DNA from: Candidatus Babelota bacterium
Lineage (GTDB): Bacteria; Babelota; Babeliae; Babelales; Babelaceae
Length of the DNA: 29,748 bases
Assembly: GCA_003174035.1 (NCBI GenBank)
Contig: PRDV01000017.1
Coordinates: 1-29,748, forward strand
Reading direction: 5' to 3'
The position numbers and the translations under genes are program-made. Below, in pieces: positions 1-29,748 of the stretch. The notes below the pieces were generated by a model that was given only the letters and a program-made list of their open reading frames with translations, searched no databases and had not been told where the DNA came from. Each line of letters opens with the position of its first letter. Positions within the stretch are counted from its first letter, which is position 1.

Positions 1-1394
1 CCATGAGCTTGCTTAGTAAAATCTATCTCCGGACTATCCTCTAATAGATTAAGAAGCATGGCAAGATCAAACTCCCCCTCATCGTCGGTACAGTATGTTG
101 TAAACTTAGGTTCGAGAAACGACCAATCTTCTGGATCCAGGGCTTCCATAAGCGCTGTTCTTCCAAATATTTCCTCGTTTATATCTTCGTTTATATCACA
201 CTTCCCATATTCGCATAACATTCTCATTATACCCCAACGCTTATAATGAGCGGCAACGCAAAGTGCTCCATACGTATTTATGTCAGGGTGATCCAACAGA
301 ACTCGCACTATAGAGGGCCAACCAAATCGAATTGCCTCCAAAAGAGCTGTCCATATTTGATTTTCAATCCAACAATCCTCATCTACTTTAATATCTTTAT
401 GCTTTAAAAGAGATTGTACGAGCTCTAAATCACCCGACCTAACCGCTAACATGAGTGCTGAATAATTGTGTATTTCATCAGCATTTATCTGAATTCCAGG
501 AACAAGGAGAAGTCTTTTTACACAGTTTCTAAAGTCTATTGGTTTATTGACATGCAGCAAAGAAGCACCATGGCAAGCAATAATTAGTGGATTCCAGCCC
601 CTGTGTGAACTTTTATTAATCAAAATCCCCTTCATTGAAAGCAATTTCTCTACTGATTTTTCACAGCCACAAAAACATGCCCACCAGAGTAATGTTCCTT
701 CTTCATCGCTTGCATTTATATCGATCTCGTGCTGATGATCGACATAAAATTGGGTGCATCTCTGTATCAATTGAACAAGCAAAGAATAATGACGATATTT
801 GTCTGCTTCACGAAACAGCGAAAAGCGCTGGTTTTCATCAATAAAAATCTTATCATCAAACTTTATATAGTTCTCGATAATCTGTACTGCTTTTGTGTAA
901 TCATGTGTCTCATAATGACACCATTTCGCAATACAGTAGTGTTGCAAACCACAGTATTGTTCATCACATTCCGTTAATGAAGCCTCATGTAATTTGGCAA
1001 CGAGCTTTAATATCTCAAATCTATAACGCAAATCAGGAGCAGCTTCTTCAGGCAATCTTGAAATTTTCTTGAAAATTCGCAATGCAATTTCACGAAATTT
1101 TTTACTCGTGGTTAACATACTATAGAGCTTATTATAATCTTCAAAAGAATTACATGCATATAAGGATTTATAAATACCTTCTTCGATAATAACCTCCTGA
1201 AGCTCGGGAAGAAGCTTCTGAAAGCATTGAAAATCTTTTAGACCCACCCGTTTGCCTGGCCCACTTTCTTGCGCTGTTATTTCGCGACCTCGTTTGAGCC
1301 CTTGCTGAGCTTGTTCTTGTTCTTTGCTTTCCGATGCTTGTAACGACATTATTGTCAGCATTGATAATGCTAGAAAGATCACATCCAATTTCAT
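1..1394 (-). CDS. Secreted ankyrin-repeat protein with N-terminal F-box-like segment; runs off the left edge (3' end missing)
   Basis: Absent from the ORF track (no stop in window). Manual translation is open from ATG 1394 (GAAAGG upstream) to position 1. It reads MKLDVIFLALSMLTIMSLQA (signal-like), then FQKLLPELQEVII...MLTTSKKFREIA, then ankyrin-like units: GTLLWWACFCGCEKSVEKLL, GWNPLIIACHG, YSALMLAVRSGDLELVQSLL, WTALLEAIRFGWPSIVRVLL, GALCVAAHYKRWGIMRMLC, GRTALMEAL. Confidence 0.85.
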   Translation of the reverse strand, partial: MKLDVIFLALSMLTIMSLQASESKEQEQAQQGLKRGREITAQESGPGKRVGLKDFQCFQKLLPELQEVIIEEGIYKSLYACNSFEDYNKLYSMLTTSKKFREIALRIFKKISRLPEEAAPDLRYRFEILKLVAKLHEASLTECDEQYCGLQHYCIAKWCHYETHDYTKAVQIIENYIKFDDKIFIDENQRFSLFREADKYRHYSLLVQLIQRCTQFYVDHQHEIDINASDEEGTLLWWACFCGCEKSVEKLLSMKGILINKSSHRGWNPLIIACHGASLLHVNKPIDFRNCVKRLLLVPGIQINADEIHNYSALMLAVRSGDLELVQSLLKHKDIKVDEDCWIENQIWTALLEAIRFGWPSIVRVLLDHPDINTYGALCVAAHYKRWGIMRMLCEYGKCDINEDINEEIFGRTALMEALDPEDWSFLEPKFTTYCTDDEGEFDLAMLLNLLEDSPEIDFTKQAH

Positions 1395-3328: not shown

Positions 3329-4348
3329 ATGCCGATTAAAGCATTTTATAACAATATTTTTCTAGTTTCTATATTAATAGCTAGCCAAACTATAACCGCC
3401 GCGTCGGATTTTTATTATGGTGATTCTTCTGGCCTTTTCATCACACGATGGGCATTCCAATCTATTTGTGACCATATCTTTGACCCATACACCTCCGAAA
3501 TTGATTTGCCAACGTCATCAACTGGTGTAATTTTTGACGCGGATAAAGTGAAAGCTGGTGATAAAATTTTTGTGAGAAACGTGAAGCTCTTTTTTGAAAA
3601 ACTACACCCTTACATAAAACAACCCTATATTATGATTACTCATGGCGAAGCCGAAGCGACGGTAAAAGACGATTATTACCGTTATTTAGAAAATAACACA
3701 ATTATTGCTTGGTTTTCTATCCATCCACCACAAATTGGACATAAAAAATTTTTCCCGATCCCGCTGGGGATTCCATCATGGGCAACTTTTAAAGAATGGA
3801 CAAACGATGATGCGTATAATGAGCTTAATATTTATCTTAAGACCCTTCGTGAAGAAGTAAAAAAAACAAAACTGATGTATATGAATTTTTCCTTTAATAC
3901 CTCAGAAGACCGCCTTAATTCCAAAAACATTTTTTTAGGGTGGACTTTTAGTTCTTTCGCTCAAAATAAGCCTTTTGAAGAATATATGGAAGAAATGGCT
4001 GCTCACAAATTTGCGCTTTCACCGCGGGGACTTGGACCAGATTGCTATCGTACCTGGGAAGCTTTGTTAGTAGGCGTTATTCCAATAGTAAAAAGAGGCG
4101 AATTCGACACATGGGCAACCCCTAAAAACAAAAAAAGATTAAGGAGGGGATCCGAATTGGACAAATTGTATGAAGACCTGCCTGTGCTTATAATCGATGA
4201 TTGGAGTGAAATTAATGAAGCATTTCTGAATCATAAATATTTAGAGATTACCTCAAGAAGATATTCTATAGAAAAATTGTATACTAAGTATTGGCATAGT
4301 AAGATTCAAAATCTAAGGGATGAATTTTTACAACAAAGAAAATCTTAA
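3329..4348 (+). CDS. Exostosin/GT47-like glycosyltransferase (paralog 1) with signal peptide
   Basis: FALSPRGLGPDCYRTWEALLVGVIPIV...LYEDLPVLIIDDWSEI motif, plus the FITRWAFQSICDHIFDP motif shared with five other ORFs here. Confidence 0.7.
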   Translation: MPIKAFYNNIFLVSILIASQTITAASDFYYGDSSGLFITRWAFQSICDHIFDPYTSEIDLPTSSTGVIFDADKVKAGDKIFVRNVKLFFEKLHPYIKQPYIMITHGEAEATVKDDYYRYLENNTIIAWFSIHPPQIGHKKFFPIPLGIPSWATFKEWTNDDAYNELNIYLKTLREEVKKTKLMYMNFSFNTSEDRLNSKNIFLGWTFSSFAQNKPFEEYMEEMAAHKFALSPRGLGPDCYRTWEALLVGVIPIVKRGEFDTWATPKNKKRLRRGSELDKLYEDLPVLIIDDWSEINEAFLNHKYLEITSRRYSIEKLYTKYWHSKIQNLRDEFLQQRKS

Positions 4349-9917: not shown

Positions 9918-9953
9918 ATGCCAGATTTAAATTTATCATGTATGGGAGACTCA

Positions 9954-11234
9954 ATGAACATCAGACTTCTTTTGCTATCTTCACTATTCTTTAACCTATT
10001 GGTGAGCACCGCAGGTGCAACTATCTACCCACCCAATCCATTACTGGTCATACTGCTGATGGTGAAAAATGAAAAGGAACGCATTGTACAAACATTAGAA
10101 ACCTATGTATCCAAAAATGAAAGCGCAAAGAAAGAAGTTGCGTATGTTATCTATGATACCGGCTCAAGTGATGGAACCGAAGACCTGGCCAAAGGATTCT
10201 TTGAGAAAAAAGAAATTACTGATTACGCCATAATAAAGGAAAGCCACTGGCCAGCGGGGAAAGACTTCCCTTATGGGAAAGCGCGCAACCGAGCACTAGA
10301 GCTCGTGCGTGAAAAATACCCAGAATCACTGTTTATCCTATTTCCTGATGCTGAATGGTACCTACACACCATTGATAAACTGTTAACATTCTGCAGAGAG
10401 GAATCGATTAAAGCTGCCCAGGGGCAGGCAATACCGCCTTACTATCACAACCGTATGTGCTGGGGAAATTCTCATATTTCGTTAACCTCAAGACTTATTG
10501 CAACGCATGATGACGTCAAATATGACTATTTTGATCGCCATGAATGCCTTAATAAGACATCCTGCCGAGACACACCTGAATCAGTCTATTTCGAAATCAT
10601 ACCAAGCCCGAGTGGCGCAGAACGCAGCCGAAAGCGCTGGGAATCTGATCGTGACTATTTTCTCAATCTTTTACTAGCAGATCCTAAGGATGTGCGTGCT
10701 GCTCACTATGTAGCAAAAAGCGAAAAATGGCTTGGCAATTACCGCAATGCTTACATCTACTATAAAATGCGCCGCGATCTCCATTCATTCCCTCAAGAAG
10801 ATTGGGAGGGATTGTATGAACTTGGAGCTGTTACCGAAGTTCTATCTGAGGAAGAGCCAGATCAATTTACCTGGGATGAGGCACTCAAATACTATCTAGA
10901 GGCTATTGCTCTCAGACCACATCGCGCAGAACCAATGGTAAAGATCGCTCAACATTACTTTTTTAAAGAACAAAAATATGGCTTAAGCTATATTTTTGCG
11001 CGTAGGGCCTGTGAGCTTCCTATGCCTGCTATCGAAAAGGAAATACTCCCTATACAGACCCATTGTTATACTTTAGATCGTTGGGAAATCTTGAGCCTGT
11101 GCGCTTTTTACATAGGTGAATATGAAGTCGGTGAAGCAGCTGCTAAAAAAGCCATCGAAGCCAGCCCAAATAGTCCACATTTGTATAAAAATCTCTCCTA
11201 CTATTGGGAAAGAAAGAACAAGGAGAGAGCATGA
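9954..11234 (+). CDS. GT2 family glycosyltransferase with C-terminal TPR-like repeats and signal peptide
   Basis: LLMVKNEKERI, YDTGSSDGT, ARNRALE, FPDAEW (DAD-like), HE. C-terminal helical repeats such as WDEALKYYLEAIALRPHRAEPMVKIAQHY and GEAAAKKAIEASP. Start at ATG 9954 (GGAG RBS). Confidence 0.82.
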   Translation: MNIRLLLLSSLFFNLLVSTAGATIYPPNPLLVILLMVKNEKERIVQTLETYVSKNESAKKEVAYVIYDTGSSDGTEDLAKGFFEKKEITDYAIIKESHWPAGKDFPYGKARNRALELVREKYPESLFILFPDAEWYLHTIDKLLTFCREESIKAAQGQAIPPYYHNRMCWGNSHISLTSRLIATHDDVKYDYFDRHECLNKTSCRDTPESVYFEIIPSPSGAERSRKRWESDRDYFLNLLLADPKDVRAAHYVAKSEKWLGNYRNAYIYYKMRRDLHSFPQEDWEGLYELGAVTEVLSEEEPDQFTWDEALKYYLEAIALRPHRAEPMVKIAQHYFFKEQKYGLSYIFARRACELPMPAIEKEILPIQTHCYTLDRWEILSLCAFYIGEYEVGEAAAKKAIEASPNSPHLYKNLSYYWERKNKERA

Positions 11235-12073
11235 TAGCACTACTATTGGCACTAACAATCTTTAGCTCGCTGTATGCCACACAAGAGCCAGAATTTGTGG
11301 TACTCGTTACCTCATATAATAATGAGAAATGGGTAGATAGGAATCTTGATTCCATCATATGCCAACGGGCATCACGCCCCTTTCAGATAATCTGCGTTAA
11401 TGACGGATCATCTGATCGTACCGGCGAGCTTATGGATGCTTACGCAAAAAAGCATACCTTGCCTGAGAGTTTCCTAAAAATCATACATAATAAAGAGCGT
11501 GTAGGATCTGCCCTTGAAAATATCTACAACACGGTACACAACCATATAGAAGACCATAAGATAGTCGTGTGTGTTGATGGTGATGACACCCTTTCCTTTA
11601 GCGGTGTTCTTGAAAGGCTTGAAAAGGAATATCGTAATCCCGACGTATGGATGACCTATGGAAGATTCGTTGTGTATCCTGCGGGAGAATTCTGGACAGC
11701 ATGTCAGGGTTATCCCGAAGAGGTTATTCGTGCACGTAGTTTCCGGCAGCACTATAATGTTCCTTCTCACCTCAAGACCTTTCGTGCAGCTCTCTTTAAA
11801 AAAGTAAGACGCGTAGATCTTCTAGATCCTTCAGGACAGATATACCGCAAAGCATGGGATATGGCTATGCTCTTCCCTATGCTCGAAATGTGCGCGCCTA
11901 AAAATGCGACCGCACCAAACCATAGCGTATTTATTGCCGATACCGTACTGTATGTATACAACTATGATAACCCCATCGGGGATTCCCGCACCGATGCAGG
12001 GCGACTGGAACAGATAAAGCTCGATCGCCATATACGCTCATTACCACCTTATGAACCATTGGATACGTTGTGA
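11231..12073 (+). CDS. GT2 family glycosyltransferase, paralog A, with signal peptide
   Basis: VLVTSYNNEKW, VNDGSSDRT, VCVDGDD. ATG 11231 overlaps the upstream stop (ATGA) and has an AGGAG RBS. Confidence 0.85.
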   Translation: MIALLLALTIFSSLYATQEPEFVVLVTSYNNEKWVDRNLDSIICQRASRPFQIICVNDGSSDRTGELMDAYAKKHTLPESFLKIIHNKERVGSALENIYNTVHNHIEDHKIVVCVDGDDTLSFSGVLERLEKEYRNPDVWMTYGRFVVYPAGEFWTACQGYPEEVIRARSFRQHYNVPSHLKTFRAALFKKVRRVDLLDPSGQIYRKAWDMAMLFPMLEMCAPKNATAPNHSVFIADTVLYVYNYDNPIGDSRTDAGRLEQIKLDRHIRSLPPYEPLDTL

Positions 12074-12996
12074 AAGGTTTAACCATGTTTCGCTTACCAT
12101 TTCTTCTTAGTATAGCTTCTAAAGCCATGAAAATGGTTCTTACACTCACCGCAGCACTCGTATTATTGCTAGAATCATATTCCTTATTTGCAGTCGGAAA
12201 AACGGAATCAATTCAACCACCACTCGAATTTGTCATTCTCGTTCCTTCCTATAACAATGAAAAATATGCACGACGCAATCTTGAATCGCTCATTAACCAA
12301 AAGACATCAGTCCCCTATTCAATCATATGTGTTAATGATTGCTCCACTGATAAAACTGGTGCCATCATGGAAGATATTGCGCGAGAGAACAATCTCTCTT
12401 CCTCTTTTTTAAAAATCATTCATAATCCTGCGCGCAAAGGAGCGCTTGCCAATATCTACAACACCATCCACGATCACCTTAAAGATCACCAAATTGTGGT
12501 GTTAGTAGATGGCGATGATAGCCTTGCTCATAATAATGTGCTTGCCCGGCTTGAGCAGGAATATGCTAACCCCAACCTTTGGATGACCTACGGGCAATTT
12601 ATTTTTTATCCCAGCGGCCGATGGGGTACCACCTATGAAATATTTAGAGACGAACTCATCGAGAAAAAAGTACGAACTCTTGTGTATGTTGCTCAACATT
12701 TGCGCACCTTCAAAGCAAGCCTTTTTAAAAAAATTCGTAAAGATGATCTCATGCTCGATGGGAAATTTTATGCGATGAATGCTGATATGGCTACTATGAT
12801 CCCGATGCTTGAAATGTGCGCACCAATAAGCAAGGATGCACCAAATCGTAGCAAGTTCATCCCTGACATTCTCTATATCTATAACTATGACAATCCGATA
12901 TGCGATTATCGCGTAAACAACGGACTCCAATTAGAACTTGAAAAAGTAATTCGCGCCCTTAAGCCATACGATCCTTTAGAAACTTTAACTACATGA
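12070..12996 (+). CDS. GT2 family glycosyltransferase, paralog B
   Basis: ILVPSYNNEKY, VNDCSTDKT, LVDGDD, WMTYGQF, HLRTFKA. Colinear with paralog A. The start is ambiguous (GTG 12070 with GTGA overlap, or a later ATG). Confidence 0.85.
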   Translation: MKGLTMFRLPFLLSIASKAMKMVLTLTAALVLLLESYSLFAVGKTESIQPPLEFVILVPSYNNEKYARRNLESLINQKTSVPYSIICVNDCSTDKTGAIMEDIARENNLSSSFLKIIHNPARKGALANIYNTIHDHLKDHQIVVLVDGDDSLAHNNVLARLEQEYANPNLWMTYGQFIFYPSGRWGTTYEIFRDELIEKKVRTLVYVAQHLRTFKASLFKKIRKDDLMLDGKFYAMNADMATMIPMLEMCAPISKDAPNRSKFIPDILYIYNYDNPICDYRVNNGLQLELEKVIRALKPYDPLETLTT

Positions 12997-14456
12997 GAAC
13001 CATCATGATCAAACCACTCAAAATCTTTGTATATAGCATAGCGTGTCTTTTGCCCCTGGCTCTCGAAGCAGAAAAAGCGATTCGCTTAGCGGATTGCTTA
13101 GCGAATCGCCAGGTAGATTACAAAGCAGGTCAGCGGGAGGCGCGCCAGGCGACTCGCCTCCCTCGACGTACGGTGAATCAAGAAAAGATTAATCTTATCG
13201 AATCCGTAACGGTGCAAAAGAATGTTATTAAGATCGAAATCAACGAAGGATTTAAGAAAAAATACCTCTTAGGTGACTTTTTTGCGCAGTACGATAAAGA
13301 CATTAATCTCGAACCACTTGATTATACCATTCAGATCATGCCCTTTATTATGAATGTGGTATCTATTGTGTGGATTTCAGGGCGAGATTATTATATAGAC
13401 GCTATGGATGAAGAACTCTATGCTTCGCTTGAAAAAGTAAAAGAAGTCTTTCGTCGTATGTATAAAAAAACTTCCTGGCAAGGACGGCTCATTCCGCGAA
13501 AGCTCGTAAAAAATACTGCACCATTTTCATCTACTGATCGCTCAGAAAATCAGTATCTTGCACTATTGTTTAGTGGTGGGCTTGATTCAACTGCTTCTTC
13601 ACTGTATCATCGCCACAAAAAGCAACTGCTCATTACCGTATGGGGACATTGGGATCTGCCATTGCATGATGAAAAACTCTGGAATATCCGTGCAGAGCAA
13701 TTAAGAGATTTTGGGAGAGAGTATGGCCATGAAAATGCCTTCATTAAATCAAACTACTACTCATTCTTAAACCGACCAGTTCTTGATAAAATATCTCCTG
13801 AGATAAGTTCTTGGCGTATTTTTACCGTCGAAGGTATCGGCTGGGCAGGCCTAGCTGCTCCTTTAATGCTGTTAAAAGGCTATCCTGAATTACGCCATGC
13901 CTCTACGGTTACCTGGGACTTTAAGTTTCCTGCAGCTGCTAACCCTTTTGTTGATGATAATATTCATTTCTCAGGTTGTTGGCTTAAGCATGATCTTTTT
14001 GATATGAACCGCATAGAAAAATGCGCCTTCATTGCAGATTTATGCAAGAAAGAGCAGCTCTCAATTCCTCAAATTCGTGTCTGCGAAGAAAAAATTGTGG
14101 GCAACTGCTGCAAGTGCCAAAAATGCGTACGTACTATTCTTGAGCTCATCGTCATTGGTGAAAAGCCTGCTGATTATGGATTCGATATTAGTGAAGAAGC
14201 AGCACTCAGAAAATCAAAGGAATTTATGGATAAGCATACTACCGGCTATACCACCGTATGGCATTTCATGCATATGCAGGAACTGCTTGCGCAAAGGAAG
14301 GCCCGGGGTGAAAAGATTCCACAGGATCTCGAATGGATCTTATCGGTTGATCTGAATAAAAAAATTACCAAAGATATTAAGTTTCAGGATACCATCAATT
14401 GGCATGATTTTGCTGATCTTTTGCCTGACATCATAATACCGACCAAGAAATCGTAA
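12993..14456 (+). CDS. PP-loop (adenine nucleotide alpha-hydrolase-like) protein with 4-Cys site, paralog 1; function unknown
   Basis: LALLFSGGLDS PP-loop; RVC-x7-C-x2-C-x2-C (CEEKIVGNCCKCQKC); signal-like N-terminus ending ALEA. Confidence 0.7.
   Translation: MRTIMIKPLKIFVYSIACLLPLALEAEKAIRLADCLANRQVDYKAGQREARQATRLPRRTVNQEKINLIESVTVQKNVIKIEINEGFKKKYLLGDFFAQYDKDINLEPLDYTIQIMPFIMNVVSIVWISGRDYYIDAMDEELYASLEKVKEVFRRMYKKTSWQGRLIPRKLVKNTAPFSSTDRSENQYLALLFSGGLDSTASSLYHRHKKQLLITVWGHWDLPLHDEKLWNIRAEQLRDFGREYGHENAFIKSNYYSFLNRPVLDKISPEISSWRIFTVEGIGWAGLAAPLMLLKGYPELRHASTVTWDFKFPAAANPFVDDNIHFSGCWLKHDLFDMNRIEKCAFIADLCKKEQLSIPQIRVCEEKIVGNCCKCQKCVRTILELIVIGEKPADYGFDISEEAALRKSKEFMDKHTTGYTTVWHFMHMQELLAQRKARGEKIPQDLEWILSVDLNKKITKDIKFQDTINWHDFADLLPDIIIPTKKS
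13077..13162. repeat. Two adjacent inverted repeats inside the coding sequence of PP-loop paralog 1
   Basis: GCGATTCGCTTAGC-ggatt-GCTTAGCGAATCGC (14-bp arms, 1 mismatch, 13077-13109) and GGGAGGCG-12 nt-CGCCTCCC (8-bp perfect, 13135-13162). 53/86 nt are G+C. Confidence 0.8.
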
Positions 14457-14463
14457 GGATGCT

Positions 14464-15840
14464 ATGCTAATTCTGGTTGTACTTGCTTTCCTGACTATAG
14501 TAAGCGCTTATGCCGTAGAAGAAAATCTAATTGAAAGCGTGCGCGTACACAAAAATAGGGTGGATATTGCACCTCATGCTGCATTTAAAAAGCAATATTT
14601 AAAAGGCAATTTCTTTGCTGAGTATGAAGAGGATATCAATCTCGAGGTATTTGATTATTCAATTCAAACAATGCCCTTCCTTATGAACGTTATCTCAATC
14701 GTCTGGATATCGGGCAATACCTATTACCTTGATGAAATGGATAGAGAGCTTTACCACTCGTTAGAACGGGTAAAAAAAGTATTTAAAACCATGTATCCTC
14801 GTACGAGCTGGAATGGTGAATTACGCGTTCGAAAGCTCGTTGATCATCCGCTACCATTTGCTCCTGTACCAGAAGAACGTACGGCGCTGCTGTTTAGCGG
14901 CGGCATTGATTCAACATCAACTGCACTTGCCCATTGCGACAAAAAACAGCTCTTCATTACTGCATGGGGACATTGGGATCTGCCGTTACATGAGCAATCT
15001 CTCTGGCAAACACGTAAAAAGAAAATCATAGCATTTGCTCAACAATGCTCAGAGCTACAGCAGAAAGATGAGAACTTACATCATTCTGCACCACGCAATG
15101 AAACATCCTGTATTCGTTCAAATTATGCTGCATTTTTAAATTGGGAATATTTATCAAACCTCACGCCAGAAATTATTAAATGGCGTTTGGGCACTGTAGA
15201 AGGGCTTGGTTGGGTAGGGCTTACTGCACCTATTCTGCTCACTAAAAAATATCCCGTTCTACGTATCGCATCATCGCATACGTGGCTGTATCCATACCCA
15301 TCTGCTGCCAGTCCTTTTGTCGATAACAATCTCTTTTTCTGCGGACTACGGGTACTGCATGATCAGTTTGATATGACGCGAGAAGATAAAATAGCATTCA
15401 TCGCACGTACCTGCAAAGAGCTGAAAATGGATCCGCCCTTTTTAAAGATCTGTTCACTTGAAAAGAAAAACGACGCTAACTGCGGTTCCTGCCGCAAATG
15501 CTTATCAAGCGCTATTGGATTCTTAGCAATAAATGAGAATCCAAAGGAGTATGGCATTAACATAGAGAGATCAACATTAATCAAAAGAACCCTCACCTTG
15601 CTTGCACCAGAGAAACTTAATTTCTATACCATTCTTTTTTTCAAAGGCATTCAAAAAACAATCCAAGAACGGCTTGAGCAAGGCAAACCAGTGCCTGAAG
15701 AGCTGAAAGTACTTTTAACAATAGATTTTAATGAGAAGCGAGCCTATGATGTTGAAAAACAGCATAAGCTTGATTGGCAGGAAATGCTTGCCCTATTACC
15801 AGATAGAGGCGATTTGCCCCTTACGATGGCGGGAAATTAA
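14464..15840 (+). CDS. PP-loop/4-Cys protein, paralog 2; function unknown
   Basis: TALLFSGGIDS; KIC-x9-C-x2-C-x2-C (CSLEKKNDANCGSCRKC); MLILVVLAFLTIVSAYA signal peptide; colinear with paralogs 1 and 3. Confidence 0.7.
   Translation: MLILVVLAFLTIVSAYAVEENLIESVRVHKNRVDIAPHAAFKKQYLKGNFFAEYEEDINLEVFDYSIQTMPFLMNVISIVWISGNTYYLDEMDRELYHSLERVKKVFKTMYPRTSWNGELRVRKLVDHPLPFAPVPEERTALLFSGGIDSTSTALAHCDKKQLFITAWGHWDLPLHEQSLWQTRKKKIIAFAQQCSELQQKDENLHHSAPRNETSCIRSNYAAFLNWEYLSNLTPEIIKWRLGTVEGLGWVGLTAPILLTKKYPVLRIASSHTWLYPYPSAASPFVDNNLFFCGLRVLHDQFDMTREDKIAFIARTCKELKMDPPFLKICSLEKKNDANCGSCRKCLSSAIGFLAINENPKEYGINIERSTLIKRTLTLLAPEKLNFYTILFFKGIQKTIQERLEQGKPVPEELKVLLTIDFNEKRAYDVEKQHKLDWQEMLALLPDRGDLPLTMAGN
15060..15089. 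repeat. 30-nt hairpin inside the coding sequence of PP-loop paralog 2
   Basis: GCAGAAAGATG-agaactta-CATCATTCTGC, 11-bp arms with 1 mismatch, within a 15-aa insertion relative to paralogs 1 and 3. Confidence 0.6.
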
Positions 15841-15841
15841 T

Positions 15842-17254
15842 ATGAAACGTACACTGTTTTTTGTTTTAGCCTTTTTATACGCAAGCCTTACTATTTTCGG
15901 CAAGCAACCTGATTATACAAAAGATCGTAAAAAACAGAGTGAGCTCGTGCAGGTTATACCTAGTGAGCGCACACTCACCGAGCGTATGCTCACCGAGCGT
16001 GCAGAACCAATCAAGCTCATTGACGAAGTAATCGTCAACAAAAATAGAATCGATGTTCGCATAAATAGCGCATTTAAGAAAGCATATCTCAAGGAAGATT
16101 TCTTTGTTGAGTATGATGAAGACATCAATTGTGAAAAACTCGATTATTCGATTATCACCCTTCCCTTCATTATGAACGTCATGTCACTCATATGGGTTTC
16201 AGGCAAAGAGTACACAATACCAACGATGGACAAGGAGATCTATGCATCGCTTGAAAAAATCAAACAGCTCTTTGAGATCTTCTATCCTAAAACTCCCTGG
16301 AAAGGAAAGCTTATTCCAGAAAAACTGGTAAGCAATAGCTTAAATCGAAGCCAACAACCTATGATCGCTTTGTTATTTAGTGGCGGTGTAGATTCCACAG
16401 CAGCATCCCTCATTCATCGCGATAAAAAGCAGCTCCTCATAACTGCCTGGGGCCAAAGTTGCTTACCGCTCCAAGATCGCAAGATGTGGGAAACCATTAA
16501 GAAGCAGGTAATCTCCTTTGCTCATGAATACGGCCATGAGAATGCGTTTATCAAATCAAACTACTACTCATTTCTTAACTTAAAAACGCTTACGAACCTA
16601 TCCCCAGAAATAGTCACGTGGAGAATAGACACCATAGAGGATATTGGTTGGATTGGATTGACAGCACCTATCTTGTTTGCAAAGGGTATTTCAACGTTGC
16701 ATATAGCTTCTACAGAAAACTGGAATTCCAAATATGCGAATGCGGCAAATCCCTACATCGATGGTCTTATTACCTACGCTTCAATACATACCAAACACAA
16801 TCAGTTTGATGTAACTCGTTTTGATAAAATCGCTCTCATCAATGATCTTGCGAATCGCCATCTAGTTAAACGTCCAATATTGCCGGTATGTCAAAAACCT
16901 GGAGGTATCGTTAATTGTGGATCTTGTGAAAAATGTTGTATAACCTTGTTATGCTTATATACATTAGCTGCTAACCCACGCGAGTATGGTTTCAAAACCA
17001 CCTATGCAGAGGTCAAAAAAAATACCCTCTATCTTTGTGATAACAATACACTTTCTATAACAACAATCGAGCAACTAAAAGATCTTCAAAAACACATTGC
17101 TCTCGCAAAACATCCCACACATGACTTTTCATGGTTGATGAGCATAGATTTTAGCACAAAAAAGACATACGATGTTAAAAAACAGCAACCAGTCGATTGG
17201 AAAATAGTCGCTGGAAAATTTCCGGAGATTAAGAGCCCTTATAGTGGCTCATAG
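15842..17254 (+). CDS. PP-loop/4-Cys protein, paralog 3; function unknown
   Basis: IALLFSGGVDS; PVC-x8-C-x2-C-x2-C (CQKPGGIVNCGSCEKC). ATG 15842 lies 1 nt after the upstream stop and gives MKRTLFFVLAFLYASLTIFG; the ORF-track start at 15731 lies inside paralog 2. Confidence 0.7.
   Translation: MKRTLFFVLAFLYASLTIFGKQPDYTKDRKKQSELVQVIPSERTLTERMLTERAEPIKLIDEVIVNKNRIDVRINSAFKKAYLKEDFFVEYDEDINCEKLDYSIITLPFIMNVMSLIWVSGKEYTIPTMDKEIYASLEKIKQLFEIFYPKTPWKGKLIPEKLVSNSLNRSQQPMIALLFSGGVDSTAASLIHRDKKQLLITAWGQSCLPLQDRKMWETIKKQVISFAHEYGHENAFIKSNYYSFLNLKTLTNLSPEIVTWRIDTIEDIGWIGLTAPILFAKGISTLHIASTENWNSKYANAANPYIDGLITYASIHTKHNQFDVTRFDKIALINDLANRHLVKRPILPVCQKPGGIVNCGSCEKCCITLLCLYTLAANPREYGFKTTYAEVKKNTLYLCDNNTLSITTIEQLKDLQKHIALAKHPTHDFSWLMSIDFSTKKTYDVKKQQPVDWKIVAGKFPEIKSPYSGS
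15965..16000 (+). repeat. Short in-frame 15-nt-period tandem repeat (SERTLTERMLTER)
   Basis: gagcgc-acaCTCACCGAGCGT-atgCTCACCGAGCGT; the 12-nt core is repeated exactly. Confidence 0.6.
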
Positions 17255-18228
17255 CCCTCATAAATACCGTCTTTATAAATACACTCTCGATAGGCATCTA
17301 ATAAGCGTTTGCGAGTGACATTGATATAGTCGATCCAATACTGCATATATAGCCGTTCGGGATTATATTTTTTCGAGGTAAATTCCTTATACGCTTCGTT
17401 TAAAAACTCTTCTGTTACCTGTTCCCAATTATCAATGAAGAGCACCGGCAATCCTTCGTACATATAATCTAGGTACGAATGTTGCACTATAGGAATCGTT
17501 CCCACCAAAAGACTTTCATAGATGCGATAGCAATCTGGTCCAAGTCCTGGGGGAGAAACAATGAATTTATGCAGAGCAGTTTCTCTAATATATTTTTCAA
17601 AGGGACACTGATGACCATTGTTACAAAATTTCTGTTCAAGAAAATAGTCCCGAATGCGCTTTCTATCAGGGTTACGCCAATCCGTGAAATTCATGTACAG
17701 CAACTTTTCTTTTTTAGTGTGACGATACTTAAGAAACTTATTGTGCACATCTTCTCTCTTTTTATAAATATCATGATATTGCACTATTCCAAGCGGTATC
17801 GGAAAAACACGTTCATGTTTTTTCTTGTGCGGGTGAATGGTAAACCATCCAAGAATGCGCGAATCCTCTAGATAATCAAAATAACCTTCCTGAAAGGTGT
17901 CAAGGTATTCTCCATGCGTCATAATAAAATAGGGAACTTTAATTTTGGAATGCATTGTCTTAAAAAAATGATGTGCATCACGCACAAAAACCATATCTCC
18001 TACTCGTACTTTTTTGGGATCAAATGTTGCTGGCCACACATCAGTTGAAGTTGGCCATACCGTGCGTGGATCAAACACAAAATCACACAGCTCTTGAAAT
18101 GCCCAACGTATGACAAAATTAGACGATGTGGTTGGGTAAAAAAGATCATGGTCTAGGCCAGCAAACAAGTGAATGTAAAGTGTTAATATGCATAATAATT
18201 TCTGCAAAATCTTACTGCTCATCGACAT
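17239..18228 (-). CDS. Exostosin/GT47-like glycosyltransferase (paralog 2)
   Basis: FIVSPPGLGPDCYRIYESLLVGTIPIV, FVIRWAFQELCDFVFDP, signal-like N-terminus. The 3' end overlaps the convergent paralog-3 PP-loop gene by 16 nt. Confidence 0.7.
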   Translation of the reverse strand: MSMSSKILQKLLCILTLYIHLFAGLDHDLFYPTTSSNFVIRWAFQELCDFVFDPRTVWPTSTDVWPATFDPKKVRVGDMVFVRDAHHFFKTMHSKIKVPYFIMTHGEYLDTFQEGYFDYLEDSRILGWFTIHPHKKKHERVFPIPLGIVQYHDIYKKREDVHNKFLKYRHTKKEKLLYMNFTDWRNPDRKRIRDYFLEQKFCNNGHQCPFEKYIRETALHKFIVSPPGLGPDCYRIYESLLVGTIPIVQHSYLDYMYEGLPVLFIDNWEQVTEEFLNEAYKEFTSKKYNPERLYMQYWIDYINVTRKRLLDAYRECIYKDGIYEGYEPL

Positions 18229-18239
18229 TACCCATTCAA

Positions 18240-19301
18240 TTACTTATACGTTGCTAAAAATTGAGACCTAACTGCTTCGATTTTATCGAGCCAATACTCC
18301 ATGTAGATCCGCTTAATATCATATTTACGAGACATGATCTCTGCGTACTTTTTATTAAGATACTCCTCATCTATTTCTTCCCATTCATCGATAATAAGCA
18401 CCGGCAATCCCTCAAATAATGGATCAAGCTGGGATTTGCGAACTATTGGAATGGAACCTACTAAAAGCGCTTCCCAGGTACGATAGCAATCCGGACCCAA
18501 ACCTGCTGGCGAAAGCGTAAATTTGCATTCAGACATCTCTTTTAGATAACTCTCAAAAGGTTGCCGCAATCCACGTTTACAATACTGTCGGTTTATAAAC
18601 ATTTCCCTCACTTTTTTTCGTTCAGGCTTCTGAAAATCAGCAAAATTCATATACAACAACTCTTTTTTCTCACTTGTTCTACGCAATCTCCCAAAAGTTG
18701 CATGGAGTTCCTTAGCTCTTTTATGATTCTCTGGCTGCTGAATTACGCCAAGAGGAATTGGAGTAAATTTAGCGTGCAAAGTTTTACAGGGGTGGATACC
18801 AAACCAACGAATCACTTTAGGATCTTCTAAATAAGCATAGTACTTTTTTTTCATTGATTCTAAGCAATCTCCATGCGTAAGGATCATATAAGGATTTTTA
18901 ATGTAAGGATGCATGGTTTCAAAAAACAGAGGGGCATTCCGCACGAAAATGAGATCTCCCGCTTCTACCAAACTCGGGTCAAAAGTTATGCCACCTTCTT
19001 TTAGCGTCGTCGGCCAGTGCCATTTGTCGGTTAATGGGTCAAATACATGATCACAATATCTCTGAAATTCCCAACGAATTACAAAATGACGTGATGATTC
19101 CCCATAATAGAGCGGATCATCATTGCCTAATACCCCACGATATACAACAGCCTGGTCAGCGTTTGCATTTTCAGACAATAAATCAAAAAGCAACGTATTT
19201 TGACGCACTGGATCTTGCTGTGCTGGATCTGAACTAAGTATATTGGCTCTGCAATATCCGGCCACTAATAAGCATAGCCCTATCACCCCCCCTATCTTCA
19301 T
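18240..19301 (-). CDS. Exostosin/GT47-like glycosyltransferase (paralog 3)
   Basis: FTLSPAGLGPDCYRTWEALLVGSIPIV, FVIRWEFQRYCDHVFDP, MKIGGVIGLCLLVAGYCRA signal followed by an extra ~30-aa linker. Confidence 0.7.
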   Translation of the reverse strand: MKIGGVIGLCLLVAGYCRANILSSDPAQQDPVRQNTLLFDLLSENANADQAVVYRGVLGNDDPLYYGESSRHFVIRWEFQRYCDHVFDPLTDKWHWPTTLKEGGITFDPSLVEAGDLIFVRNAPLFFETMHPYIKNPYMILTHGDCLESMKKKYYAYLEDPKVIRWFGIHPCKTLHAKFTPIPLGVIQQPENHKRAKELHATFGRLRRTSEKKELLYMNFADFQKPERKKVREMFINRQYCKRGLRQPFESYLKEMSECKFTLSPAGLGPDCYRTWEALLVGSIPIVRKSQLDPLFEGLPVLIIDEWEEIDEEYLNKKYAEIMSRKYDIKRIYMEYWLDKIEAVRSQFLATYK

Positions 19302-20254
19302 CTATTCCCCTTATACTCTTCTAAAAATGCTTGCCTCACCTCTTCTATCTTTTTCCACCAATATTCCATAAATAACTTCTCGATAGTGAATTTTTTGGAT
19401 GTCATTTCATGCCACTTCCTTTCAAGATACTCTTCGGTAATTTCTTTCCAATCGTGGATGATAAGAATCGGCAAATCCTCATATAAAGGGTCTAAATGCG
19501 ATGTGTGCACTATTGGAATCGACCCTACAAGCATCGCTTCCCAATTTCTATACGAATCAGGGCCATACCCTCGTGGCGAAAGCGTAAATTTAAAATGAGC
19601 CATTTCTTTCATGTAATCAAGAAACGGCAATCGCTTTGCTTTATAGCAAAAAGGCAGCGTATCAAAGAGATCATCCACTTCTGCCCTCTCAGGTTTCTTT
19701 CCCAAAAGATCTCCATAGTTACTGTAAAGAAGATTTTCTTTAGGAATAGCTCTCAGGCGAGCAAAAAGCTGAGTAAGCTCTGCACGGGGTTCATAATATT
19801 TTTTATCCTGATAAATCCCCAGGGGAAGCATGAAAAATTTGGGGTGAGTTCGAGCACTCGCATGCACACTAAACCATGCAATAATTTTTTCATCATCAAG
19901 ATAATCAATACATTCCTCTTTAACAGTATCACGATATTCCCCAGCAGTTACCATAATATAGGGGTGCTTAATTTTATGATGAAGCTTTTTATGGAACAGC
20001 GCCACATCGCGGACGAAAATAATATCTCCTGGTCGTACATCAGCAGGATTGAGCGTTACCCCATCATGCTTTGATGGCCACAAAAATTTGTTCGTACGTG
20101 GATCAAATACATGATGACAGATTTTTTGAAAACCCCAGCGATTTACATAATTTTCTGAGTAAATTCCATAAAAGATATGTGAATTTTCATTATAATGGGC
20201 GTGAGCATAAAAACCCATTAAAAGAATAAATGCAAGTAATGTTGCGAGCTTCAC
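19298..20254 (-). CDS. Exostosin/GT47-like glycosyltransferase (paralog 4)
   Basis: FTLSPRGYGPDSYRNWEAMLVGSIPIV; GTG start; MKLATLLAFILLMGFYAHA signal; ATGA overlap with paralog 3. Confidence 0.7.
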   Translation of the reverse strand: MKLATLLAFILLMGFYAHAHYNENSHIFYGIYSENYVNRWGFQKICHHVFDPRTNKFLWPSKHDGVTLNPADVRPGDIIFVRDVALFHKKLHHKIKHPYIMVTAGEYRDTVKEECIDYLDDEKIIAWFSVHASARTHPKFFMLPLGIYQDKKYYEPRAELTQLFARLRAIPKENLLYSNYGDLLGKKPERAEVDDLFDTLPFCYKAKRLPFLDYMKEMAHFKFTLSPRGYGPDSYRNWEAMLVGSIPIVHTSHLDPLYEDLPILIIHDWKEITEEYLERKWHEMTSKKFTIEKLFMEYWWKKIEEVRQAFLEEYKGNR

Positions 20255-20375: not shown

Positions 20376-21455
20376 GTGCTCATGTCTTCTAGGAAATTGT
20401 ACAATAACGCGGTCTCTCTTATATTGATCGTTTCATTGAACGTGCAATATAATACATGTGCGGGTAAGAATATATTTGATGAGCCTCAAGCTTCATGTAA
20501 TTTTATTATACGGTGGGCATTTGCAAAATTATGTAATCATTTCTATGACCCGAACACCGTGCCCTGTTCCTGGCCTACAAAGCCTCAAGGTATAAGCTTT
20601 CATCCCTCTGATATTAACGAAACCGATGTCATTTTTGTCCGGAATACTAAACGCTTTTTTAGTGAAATGCATCCCCATATTAACCACCCTTACATTATAC
20701 TAACTCATGGTGATTATCGCGATACCTGCGATGAGAATTTTTTCCATTACCTTGATGATCCAAAAATAATTGCCTGGTTGAGCATACATCCCTTTAAAAA
20801 GGCTCATAAAAAATTCGTACCTCTTCCTCTTGGCATTAGGCAAGAACACGCCTATTTTGAAAACAAAGAGATTTATAACGAGTTTTTCAAAAATTTACGA
20901 GAGCAAGCATCTAAGGATAAACTTCTTTGTTTAAATTTTGACCCAGAAAAAAATCAACTACGAGAGGCAATAATCGAAAAATTTTCAAGTAAGCCTTGGT
21001 GTTGCAGGCAAGAGAAACTACCATTTATTCAATACATGAAAGAAATGTCCACCTATAAATTTGTATTTTCACCACGAGGCTGGGGCCCAGACTCCTATCG
21101 GACTTGGGAAGCTCTTCTCGTAGGAACCATCCCTATCGTAAAAAGAGGCGAATTTGAAATTATTGACATTGTAAAGGGAATAATACCAGAATCTCTGGAC
21201 CAATCAGTTGACTCTCAGTTAGACACCCTCTATGCCAATCTTCCAGTACTCCTGATTGACGATTGGGCAAACATCACTGAAGAATTCCTCAAGCAGAAAT
21301 ATATTGAGATGACCAAAAAAAATTATGATTTAGCATCGCTCTACATGGAATACTGGGTCAGCAAAATAGATGCTATAAAAGAACATCATTATCAAGATAA
21401 AATCGATAAAATGAGTATCTTTAGCCAGCTGCGCAAAGAACATTCTGAGGAATAA
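20376..21455 (+). CDS. Exostosin/GT47-like glycosyltransferase (paralog 5)
   Basis: FVFSPRGWGPDSYRTWEALLVGTIPIV, FIIRWAFAKLCNHFYDP. Start is GTG 20376 or ATG 20382. The 3' end overlaps the convergent gene by 35 nt. Confidence 0.7.
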   Translation: MLMSSRKLYNNAVSLILIVSLNVQYNTCAGKNIFDEPQASCNFIIRWAFAKLCNHFYDPNTVPCSWPTKPQGISFHPSDINETDVIFVRNTKRFFSEMHPHINHPYIILTHGDYRDTCDENFFHYLDDPKIIAWLSIHPFKKAHKKFVPLPLGIRQEHAYFENKEIYNEFFKNLREQASKDKLLCLNFDPEKNQLREAIIEKFSSKPWCCRQEKLPFIQYMKEMSTYKFVFSPRGWGPDSYRTWEALLVGTIPIVKRGEFEIIDIVKGIIPESLDQSVDSQLDTLYANLPVLLIDDWANITEEFLKQKYIEMTKKNYDLASLYMEYWVSKIDAIKEHHYQDKIDKMSIFSQLRKEHSEE

Positions 21456-26099: not shown

Positions 26100-26179
26100 A
26101 AATCAACGACAAAAATGTAGAACGAAACTTTTTAATTAGTATGAAAAGAGAAATATTACCAACCACAGAGGGGATCTCT

Positions 26180-27127
26180 ATGAATATATATTATATTTTA
26201 GCACTACTAGCTTTTTCATCACTTATTGGAAATTCGTCATATGCACGATTTGAAGAATCTTCAGCACTCTATCATGGAACTTATAGTGAGAATTTTGTAA
26301 CGCGCTGGGGCTTTCAAAGTAAGTGCGATCATTGTTTTGATCCGCGCACAAAATGGCCAACTGTGGGATTAAACAACTTGAACCCGCAAGCAGTAAAGGC
26401 TGGGGATATTATTTTTGTACGAGATGTAAAGACTTTTTTGAAAACAGTACATCCTAAAATTCTAAACCCCTATATTATGATTACAGCGGGAGACGTGAAA
26501 GATCGGACGCGAGAAATATTTATGCAAAGCCTTAATAGTCCAAAAATTATTGCCTGGTTTTCAGTGCATGCTTGTACACTGTCACACCACAAGTTCCACC
26601 CCATTCCGTTAGGCATTATTCAGACACGCGCACATTATGAAAATCGTTCGGAGATGACCAATTTTTTTGCACAGCTTCGTCAAAACGAAAGAAACAAATT
26701 ACTCACTATGAACTTTTTAATGCAGAATAAACCCTCTCGCACGGAGGTCTACAAACTGTTTGAAAATGCCTCTTTTTGCGATAAGGCCCATACCCTTCCA
26801 TTTCTAGATTATTTGAAACATATGGCACAATTTAAATTCGCGCTCTCACCCCGTGGCGTAGCGATTGACACCTATCGCACCTGGGAAGCAATGTTGGTGG
26901 GCACTATACCAGTCGTGGAAAGTTCGCAACTAGACGGACTATACGCAGATTTACCTATTCTTATTATAAAAGATTGGAATGAGATAACACCATCATTTTT
27001 AGAACAAAAATATAAAGAAATGACCTCAAAAAAATATAATATTGAAAAGTTATTTATGGAGTATTGGTGGAAAAAAATTGAAGATGTCCAGAGAACATTT
27101 CTCAATAAGATAGCTCAACCAAAATAA
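26180..27127 (+). CDS. Exostosin/GT47-like glycosyltransferase (paralog 6)
   Basis: FALSPRGVAIDTYRTWEAMLVGTIPVV, FVTRWGFQSKCDHCFDP. ATG 26180 (GAGGGGA RBS) gives the signal MNIYYILALLAFSSLIGNSSYA. Closest by eye to paralog 4. Confidence 0.7.
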   Translation: MNIYYILALLAFSSLIGNSSYARFEESSALYHGTYSENFVTRWGFQSKCDHCFDPRTKWPTVGLNNLNPQAVKAGDIIFVRDVKTFLKTVHPKILNPYIMITAGDVKDRTREIFMQSLNSPKIIAWFSVHACTLSHHKFHPIPLGIIQTRAHYENRSEMTNFFAQLRQNERNKLLTMNFLMQNKPSRTEVYKLFENASFCDKAHTLPFLDYLKHMAQFKFALSPRGVAIDTYRTWEAMLVGTIPVVESSQLDGLYADLPILIIKDWNEITPSFLEQKYKEMTSKKYNIEKLFMEYWWKKIEDVQRTFLNKIAQPK

Positions 27128-27853: not shown

Positions 27854-29748
27854 CTCACATTCCGCACCCATAGATGGCATATTTCATTTTTTAAGGTACT
27901 GAACCCCTAATTTCGGTCGATCCTAATGAGAGCCTTAGTTTTGCTTTTTTTATAGCTAAAGCAAAAGAAGCGAGCTCCTGCCTAGTAGGCAATTACTAGA
28001 ACTATATCATTAACAACCTCCTTTCCTTTGAGGTTTACGATTAGAGGCCAATAAGATACATACGCATACATGAGCTTCCTAAGAATTTTAATATATGTCT
28101 GAGTTGATCAGGTAGGTTGAGTACAAGCATGTGGAGTTCGGTTCCTTTAGCTATACTGGCTATAATAACACCTTCAAACATTTGAAAGACCCACCGCATA
28201 GTTGGCTTTTGAGTAGGCTTACCCTTCTGATCTGGAACAGTAGCATTTTGATCTACAAGTGCTTTACGAAGCTTTCTCTCTGCAAGGGAATATACTAATA
28301 AGCAAAGGCACATTATCATTGCAAGTGCAACTATGCGCTTCTCATTCTTAAGAAATACAGATGAGGCTAAACAGAGCGGGTCCTTGAGAAATCTGAATCC
28401 GCTTTCTACCTTGTTTTGATCCTTATAATAGGATAGGATCTCTTCTGTAGACAATGCTTGCTTGTCAAGCTCATTTGTTGCAAGCACAAACATGCTGCCT
28501 AATACTTTAGCCTTTTCAATTCGAGCGACATCTTCGACTATTTTAATTGAAGAGTAAAAAATCGAGATTGAACGCGACGTTTCAGAAGGCCTTCCTCCAG
28601 TTATAATTTTTTTTGTTCCTTGATATGCTCAATCTCAAGTTTGTGGTATTTCAGTTTTTTCCCCACTGGAAGAATGGCTTTTTCAGCATCTTCCCTGCAG
28701 TTGTATTCTGTTGAATGAACCTTTTTAATAGCCTTTTCTATCTCAAGCTTCTCTTTTTTAACCAAAGCCTTAACGCTTTTTTCAGCTCGATCATGAGCTG
28801 GTTTTGAATAAACAAGCACCCATCGTTGTTCAATTTCACCATATTTCATCGGCATTTCTATTACTTTATAGTTATCATTTAGAGACATCATGTCCTTTAA
28901 GTCTGCATGCTTAGCTTTCAATTCACTTATTTGCTTGATTTTTTCAGGCACACGGCTTATCCACGGAATATTAACCTTAACGGCTTCTTCGTTGTAAAAG
29001 GCACAATCGAGAACAGCATAAAACTTGTCTTCATTATCTTTGATATTGCTTTGCATCATTTTTAATACTTCACGAAAATGCACCGAATCAGACGTGTTTC
29101 CAGGGATTGCCTGTGCATAAAGAGGTATGCCTCCATCGTTGCTCACCATCATTGAAATAAGGAATTGTTTTAGATCGACGCGTCCCTGCTTTGCGTACCC
29201 AAATGAAATAAATTGCATAGCTTTGTCTTCATCTTCATATTCTCCATGTACCTGAAGATTTGTGGTATCAAGGTGTCTAAACTTTCTATTCACGTTCTGT
29301 TGTTTTGCTGCATTAAGCGCAATATGTGAGAATATTTTCGTGCAATCATTTTCATAGAGCCGATCTAGAGCTCTACCCAAAGTATCATCATTTAAGTCAT
29401 CGGCAATGATTCCTTCTCCTAATAAATGTTCTATAGGCTTAGTATTAAAAAATTGGTGCGCTAAGTACATTGGTCTTGTAGTATATCCCATTCCATTGAT
29501 GATCATCGCTTTTACACAAGTTCCTATTGATATTTTTCTTTGTAGATCAGATCCAGTAAGCTTATTTATATCGGCTTCCACCATTATTTCGTCACATATC
29601 CCAGCAATTAGTCCGTAATGATGTAGATCAAGCGCTTTTAGCTCCATTTCTCCGCTTCCCTTTCTTGTTGTAAGCGCTAAAATTATCACATAATTGCCGG
29701 TTTTTTTCAAAAAAATGTGTTGTGCTTATTCGGGGTGCGGAATGTGAG
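27854..29748 (-). mobile_element. IS1634-family insertion sequence, 1895 bp, both ends visible
   Basis: Perfect 16-bp terminal inverted repeats CTCACATTCCGCACCC (27854-27869) and GGGTGCGGAATGTGAG (29733-29748) enclose a DDE transposase. The target duplication cannot be assessed because the right flank is outside the window. Confidence 0.88.
28041..29647 (-). pseudogene. IS1634-family transposase interrupted by a -1 frameshift at an A8 tract (about 28607-28614)
   Basis: Upstream part (ATG 29647): HHYGLIAG, LNDDTLGRALDRLY, HLDTT, FGYAKQGRVDLKQF, GNTSD, LDCAFY. Downstream part: FVLATN, YKDQNKVESGFRFLKDP, KRIVAL, GKPTQKPTMRWVFQ. The -1 frame bridges the two without a stop (IITGGRPSE...LGSMFVLATN). 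Confidence 0.85.

Follow-up and report, generated by a model that had tools for sequence, protein, structure and literature searches.

Enzymes of the QueC branch of the PP-loop superfamily activate a carboxylate by adenylation and then transfer the acyl group onto an amine; QueC itself converts 7-carboxy-7-deazaguanine to an amide and on to a nitrile. A QueC-like core also occurs in Cap9/QatC of the type IV CBASS and QatABCD defence systems (PDB 9NTO, 9VLK), where Cap9 joins a carboxylate to an amine by ligating 7-carboxy-7-deazaguanine to a protein N-terminus (PMC13279940), and MurL, which converts ATP to AMP, acts on a sugar-nucleotide-linked carboxylate (PMC8788868). Here we analysed a stretch of 29,748 nucleotides from a Candidatus Babelota bacterium (contig PRDV01000017.1 of assembly GCA_003174035.1; the window), in which three consecutive genes behind three glycosyltransferase genes encode QueC-like PP-loop proteins (paralogs A, B and C) with predicted Sec signal peptides. 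On balance we favour the interpretation that this trio is exported through Sec, activates a carboxylate on a glycan by ATP-dependent adenylation and ligates it to form an amide, with the host supplying the ATP.

Paralogs A (487 amino acids; 12993..14456), B (458 amino acids; 14464..15840) and C (470 amino acids; 15842..17254) are encoded on the forward strand and share 44-47% pairwise identity over 404-436 residues. Immediately upstream on the same strand lie the genes for a GT2-TPR glycosyltransferase (9918..11234; Pfam Glycos_transf_2 and TPR_2), which is gene 1 of a conserved six-gene operon, and for two GT2 glycosyltransferases, GT2a (11231..12073; Glycos_transf_2, E 8e-15) and GT2b (12070..12996; Glycos_transf_2, E 4e-18; GTG start), signal-like N-termini being present on GT2-TPR and GT2a. 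The junctions from GT2-TPR through GT2a and GT2b to A are all 4-nucleotide overlaps (ATGA, GTGA and ATGA in turn, the ATG of GT2a overlapping the preceding stop), and gaps of 7 nucleotides and 1 nucleotide separate A from B and B from C. The open reading frame (ORF) finder began paralog C at an upstream ATG (15731); we set its start at the ATG at 15842 because a signal-like segment follows directly and the 1-nucleotide gap results.

Each paralog begins with a predicted signal peptide (approximately 12993-13070 in A, 14464-14514 in B and 15842-15901 in C) and carries the SGGxDS PP-loop of the superfamily, as LLFSGGLDS in A (residue 191; 13563-13589), LLFSGGIDS in B (residue 142; 14887-14913) and LLFSGGVDS in C (residue 177; 16370-16396). 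All three also retain a four-cysteine (Cys4) cluster of the QueC type, C-x(8)-C-x2-C-x2-C, that is predicted to bind zinc, the first spacer being x7 in A (C-x7-C-x2-C-x2-C; 14082-14126), x9 in B (C-x9-C-x2-C-x2-C; 15451-15501) and x8 in C (C-x8-C-x2-C-x2-C; 16889-16936). Among 51 distant family members P71, D149, K309, C330, C340, C343 and C346 are invariant, and in the family as a whole the PP-loop residues G146, G147 and D149 are either invariant or conserved to at least 90%. An earlier interpretation made from the DNA letters without database searches (the sequence-only reading) had described these motifs in each of three colinear paralogs behind GT2-TPR, GT2 and GT2, and the ORFs, overlaps, gaps and motifs are all where it had placed them. 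In paralog A the linker between signal peptide and N-terminal domain additionally holds an insert of 62% G+C (13077-13162; composition confirmed here) that is absent from B and C.

The fold was examined with an AlphaFold2 model of paralog B, built on an alignment of 72 homologs (predicted local distance difference test (pLDDT) 94.6; predicted template modelling score (pTM) 0.92). Foldseek of this model against the PDB returned PP-loop enzymes only (TtuA, GMP synthetase, YcfA, QueC and argininosuccinate synthetase), and in an exhaustive VIA-align search the top match was QueC (PF06508; PDB 3BL5; Z 11.9, 182/195 residues, model residues 137-359), followed by Cap9 (9NTO; Z 10.6), with the remaining adenine nucleotide alpha-hydrolase (AANH) and USP proteins at Z 9.3 or less (ThiI 9.3, TilS 9.0, LarE 8.8). 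Among AFDB clusters, full-length relatives auto-named '7-cyano-7-deazaguanine synthase' matched at E 9e-44 and 3e-25, and an ESM Atlas shape search found a DUF6395 cluster at a template modelling (TM) score of 0.56. By its model, the trio has the fold of PP-loop ATP pyrophosphatases and adenine nucleotide alpha-hydrolases, and we infer that it uses ATP. The sequence-only reading had proposed a QueC-like architecture, to be abandoned if models lacked the AANH fold, and this part of it is borne out by the fold searches. The modelled architecture is a signal peptide, a family-specific alpha/beta N-domain (residues 19-134 in B), a QueC-like Cys4 core and a helical C-domain. Folded alone, the N-domain reached a pLDDT of 96.0; its best match among solved structures was Z 3.6, with none at Z 5 or above, and its Atlas matches were all unnamed. 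At about 115 residues after the signal peptide it is shorter than the roughly 150 first proposed.

Pfam and NCBIfam scans of A, B and C gave no model above threshold. The best Pfam score was that of QueC PF06508 with paralog B (11.2 bits against a cut-off of 22; none for A or C), and the same model matched 10 of the 51 family members weakly (best E 8e-4). While phmmer of a single sequence against the PDB produced noise only, a family profile searched against PDB sequences had one match, QatC (E 0.62), in which both PP-loop and CxxC were aligned. The trio thus shares with QueC the PP-loop, a Rossmann-like AANH core and the C-x(7-9)-C-x2-C-x2-C cluster, but it is twice the size, has its own N- and C-domains, lies in a glycan locus instead of among queuosine genes and here bears a signal peptide. 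QatC has a similar length and a PP-loop near residue 150, but the match to it is at E 0.62 only, the defence-system partners are missing around the trio, and the presumed target is a glycan, not a protein N-terminus.

The trio belongs to a large family. A phmmer search over 1.84 billion cluster representatives (50%-identity clusters) matched 1495 clusters at E <=1e-3 and 964 at E <=1e-10, many of them aligning from residue ~20 to ~440, N-domain included, with full-length homology at E values to 1e-40 and better. In a survey of one genome per GTDB species, tblastn confirmed at least 540 loci, from Bacillus to Bathyarchaeia, with carriers in the Bacillus cereus group, Priestia, Cohnella, Flavobacterium, gut Bacteroidales including Muribaculaceae, Akkermansia, cyanobacteria including Prochlorococcus, haloarchaea including Halosimplex, and Methanobrevibacter. 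Our literature search found no paper describing the family and no characterised function, so the possibility raised by the sequence-only reading, that it had already been assigned an unrelated role, did not materialise. We regard it as a new branch of an established superfamily, as yet uncharacterised and without a Pfam model, a name or a known reaction.

Its genomic context is dominated by glycan synthesis. ORFs were called on 72 homolog loci, and 124 immediate neighbours (from about 65 loci in diverse phyla) and 119 next-but-one neighbours were scanned. The immediate neighbours included PS_pyruv_trans pyruvyl transferases (33/124), Wzx-type flippases (Polysacc_synt/Polysacc_synt_3; 17/124) and GT4 glycosyltransferases (4/124), and the next-but-one neighbours GT4 (22/119), GT2 (11/119) and PS_pyruv_trans (5/119); individual metagenomic loci have a glycan setting likewise. 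Fusions point the same way, with PS_pyruv_trans domains joined to family members in a Planctomycetota cluster and an Akkermansia locus (L028), RXYLT1_C domains in proteins P0050 and P0128, and a PIG-L sugar de-N-acetylase in P0122, a JGI metagenome protein of 669 amino acids. Had homologs shown no association with glycan loci, the sequence-only reading would have had to be withdrawn; the neighbourhood analysis instead gives a very strong link. Uronic acids, which it had put forward as substrates, are not specially indicated, the recurrent partner elsewhere being the pyruvyl transferase and here GT2 and RXYLT1/GT47-like genes.

This context bears directly on whether the trio are deazaguanine enzymes unrelated to glycans, either true QueC or a protein-conjugating defence enzyme of the Cap9/QatC type. 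Such an identity would agree with the closest solved structures (QueC and Cap9), with QatC as the sole PDB sequence match and with the automatic UniProt naming of relatives as '7-cyano-7-deazaguanine synthase'. It sits poorly with a PF06508 score at about half the cut-off, with the extra N- and C-domains and with the neighbours, which at ~70 loci are overwhelmingly glycan enzymes: queD, queE, queF and tgt are absent both from the window and from ~240 homolog neighbours, and no qatA/B/D, CD-NTase or Cap10 partners lie near the trio, whose neighbours are glycosyltransferases. We consider a deazaguanine role highly improbable, and the trio very probably consists of catalytically active, glycan-tailoring PP-loop enzymes.

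The chemistry that we propose is ATP-dependent amide formation on a glycan, by analogy with the QueC branch, and we offer it tentatively, at a little less than an even chance. It is favoured because the recurrent partners fit it: a pyruvyl transferase equips the sugar with a carboxylate and a PIG-L enzyme exposes a sugar amine, and the P0122 fusion hints that the freed amine may be one of two substrates. In this scheme the PP-loop would bind ATP, and a carboxylate on a sugar residue or substituent would be adenylated with release of pyrophosphate, after which an amine (ammonia, or the amino group of a sugar or small molecule) would attack the acyl-adenylate to yield the amide and AMP. Paralogs A, B and C may each handle a separate acceptor or a separate step, working on what the co-transcribed GT2-TPR, GT2 and GT2 produce. 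In the parasite lineage the site of the reaction would be outside the cytoplasmic membrane (periplasm or host cytosol), with ATP drawn from the host.

The main chemical alternative is an ATP-dependent epimerisation of the MurL type, in which the carboxylate would be adenylated, the alpha-proton thereby acidified, the stereocentre inverted and the adenylate hydrolysed with no amide formed. Predicted-fold similarity, which is its only support among our comparisons of the trio, covers the whole architecture including the N-domain (ESM Atlas MurL cluster, TM 0.63/0.63 over residues 20-450), and a MurL cluster also appears lower down among the AFDB matches (E 1.3e-4); the ATP-to-AMP reaction of MurL on a carboxylate of a sugar-linked substrate parallels the one proposed here. 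However, the NCBIfam scan revealed no sequence-level link to MurL, the window has no murD2 or other Mur ligase gene, and MurL serves another pathway. A second, weaker family match in a Micromonosporaceae genome adjoins an alpha/beta hydrolase and not a Mur ligase. In the searches of solved structures QueC and Cap9 score higher, and the PIG-L fusion, which would supply a free amine, fits ligation better. We hold epimerisation to be unlikely.

Phylogenetic analysis indicates that the three genes are not recent duplicates. In a maximum-likelihood tree A, B and C fall into three separate orthogroups, each supported at 100/99 and each present in many genomes, and five species of the genus share the gene order GT2TPR-GT2-GT2-A-B-C, from which we conclude that the triplication is ancient and has been kept. 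This bears out the earlier suggestion that the paralogs have diversified. That all three copies have been kept, each with its PP-loop and Cys4 cluster, suggests either that their activities are non-redundant or that they assemble into a hetero-oligomer. The named homologs are from Candidatus Dependentiae, where the family has a scattered distribution (23 of 261 species genomes). Within the genus of the window it is present in 8 of 9 genomes with 2-8 copies each, some containing stop codons. Copies that are stop-interrupted or split were seen in relatives at G028:C1:492101-495010, G030:C2:717590-718880 and G033:C5:349005-350314, and the paralog arrays are therefore turning over.

The feature that sets the Dependentiae proteins apart from the wider family, with which they share full-length homology, domain order, invariant residues and glycan loci, is the Sec signal peptide. 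Signal-peptide calls in this study denote sequence features (a positive n-region, an h-region of 7-15 residues and small residues at -3 and -1), and by these features the N-termini of the trio are predicted Sec signal peptides. A hydrophobic pre-segment with n/h/c build is found in 61 of 72 Dependentiae-type members, against none of 26 homologs from other phyla, whose pre-segment has a median length of 4 residues. The Dependentiae pre-segment has a median length of 25 residues with a median h-region of 14, its n-region carries a net charge of +2.7 while the following 15 residues average -0.26, and a small-x-small motif is present in 48/65. The signal-bearing members form a single clade in the tree (support 100/99), from which we conclude that the signal peptide was gained once. 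The export proposed in the sequence-only reading gains support from the difference between Dependentiae and other phyla, and the trio probably acts outside the cytoplasm.

The signal-like N-termini are shared by most of the locus. By inspection, 24 of 27 ORFs in the window (1-27775) begin in this way, including GT2, GT4, GNAT, FkbM and Methyltransf_24 methyltransferases, PIG-L and LicD; those that do not are the transposase, the small ORF next to it and a single membrane protein. With a crude signal score the share is 19 of 25 ORFs for the window and 297 of 641 for the rest of the genome (Fisher p = 0.004). ATP, nucleotide sugars, S-adenosylmethionine (SAM) and acetyl-CoA are normally cytoplasmic, and such N-termini on GT2, GT4, GNAT and methyltransferases would be odd for truly exported proteins; together with a heuristic that flags 47% of all ORFs, this could mean that the N-termini are membrane anchors or mispredictions and that the catalytic domains work in the cytoplasm on a lipid- or nucleotide-linked precursor. 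The h-regions are, however, short and followed by small-x-small motifs, and a positive n-region ahead of a neutral or acidic segment predicts an N-in, C-out orientation. In addition, the heuristic share of ~47% matches the 44% of coding sequences with signal sequences in Chromulinavorax destructans, a cultured member of the Dependentiae, and that figure came from Phobius (PMC6561590). Cytoplasmic catalytic domains therefore seem to us improbable, and export of the trio remains the better account of its N-termini.

In a related genome, a gene for an NAD-dependent sugar epimerase/dehydratase (L004:4224-5228, reverse strand) adjoins the same operon and bears a signal-like extension of ~40 residues before its GxxGxxG Rossmann motif, an arrangement that resembles Golgi UDP-xylose synthase with its type II membrane topology. 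The L27 ribosomal protein encoded on that contig has no such extension.

An exported ATP-dependent enzyme would need ATP outside the cytoplasm. Chromulinavorax destructans multiplies in the cytoplasm of its host and takes up ATP from it (PMC6561590), and the genome analysed here contains two TLC ATP/ADP translocase genes. Since ATP from the host has to pass through the periplasm on its way to these translocases, an ATP-dependent enzyme outside the inner membrane would not be absurd. By extension, the parasite may run its whole line of glycan assembly and tailoring on the far side of its own cytoplasmic membrane, whether in the periplasm or in the host cytosol, and draw directly on the host for ATP, nucleotide sugars, SAM and acetyl-CoA. 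This line would comprise GT2, GT4 and GT47/RXYLT1-like glycosyltransferases, methyl- and acetyltransferases, the sugar de-N-acetylase, the epimerase/dehydratase of the relative and the three QueC-like ligases, although we hold this wider proposal to be doubtful. Our literature search found nothing on exported glycosyltransferases in Dependentiae.

Several observations weigh against the exported amide ligase that we favour. It is unusual for a Sec-exported protein to carry a Cys4 zinc site and to depend on ATP, and periplasmic thiol oxidation is possible in this genus since VKOR is encoded in 5 of 10 of its genomes (VKOR aside, the survey of genus genomes found neither DsbB nor Thioredoxin_4). 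The export call itself rests on sequence features, and the hidden Markov models of the QueC family (PF06508 / TIGR00364) score the trio under threshold. Finally, PS_pyruv_trans (PF04230) was not found in this genome, an assembly of 1.11 Mb in 94 contigs, one of them the window, that is 70.8% complete. As the RXYLT1-like proteins of the locus have no profile similarity to pyruvyl transferases either, the trio may use a substrate other than the one used in other phyla.

In place of pyruvyl transferases the trio is coupled to GT2 and RXYLT1/GT47-like genes. The RXYLT1_C/GT47-like glycosyltransferases are of a type best known from the eukaryotic Golgi. Six paralogs, 38-47% identical, are present in the window: three in tandem on the reverse strand, convergent on the trio (17239-18228, 18240-19301 and 19298-20254; Pfam RXYLT1_C and Exostosin_GT47), and three others at 3329-4348, 20376-21455 and 26141-27127. 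An RXYLT1-like gene trio adjoins the QueC-like array in two related genomes (L093, L095), and RXYLT1-like genes occur in 16 of the 23 genomes that carry the QueC-like family and in 50 of the 238 that do not, a moderate association between genomes that are not phylogenetically independent; the RXYLT1-like proteins are candidate partners of the trio. Overall the RXYLT1-like family was found in 66 of 261 Dependentiae species genomes, often as tandem arrays and sometimes with stop codons. The idea that these neighbours are diverged pyruvyl transferases was rejected at the sequence level (hhalign probability 0.3%).

The remaining glycan genes of the window encode two GT4 proteins, a DXD-type glycosyltransferase and a PIG-L de-N-acetylase, accompanied by two methyltransferases, a GNAT, a LicD and a sulfatase. 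At the contig end a DUF4277 + DDE_Tnp_1 transposase (28601-29710, reverse strand) may explain the assembly break, and at the other end an ankyrin-repeat protein with a signal-like N-terminus (3-1394, reverse strand) runs off the window. Ankyrin-repeat proteins are typical of Dependentiae effector repertoires, and this gene together with the two TLC translocase genes fits an intracellular energy parasite of protists.

New in this work are the gain of a signal peptide in the Dependentiae clade, the old A, B and C orthogroups within a conserved six-gene operon and a neighbourhood of normally cytoplasmic glycan enzymes with signal-like N-termini. The family to which the trio belongs is among the larger gaps in the current picture of glycan biosynthesis, and the recurrent fusion of a QueC-type adenylating enzyme to pyruvyl transferases implies that polysaccharides undergo a modification whose chemistry has yet to be described. 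The version in Dependentiae raises the question of how an ATP- and zinc-dependent enzyme, and apparently the entire glycosyltransferase neighbourhood with it, could work after Sec export. If this is what happens, the trio would provide the first known case of ATP-dependent PP-loop enzymes at work outside the cytoplasm, and obligate intracellular parasites would be able to outsource the synthesis of their surface glycans to the metabolite pools of the host.

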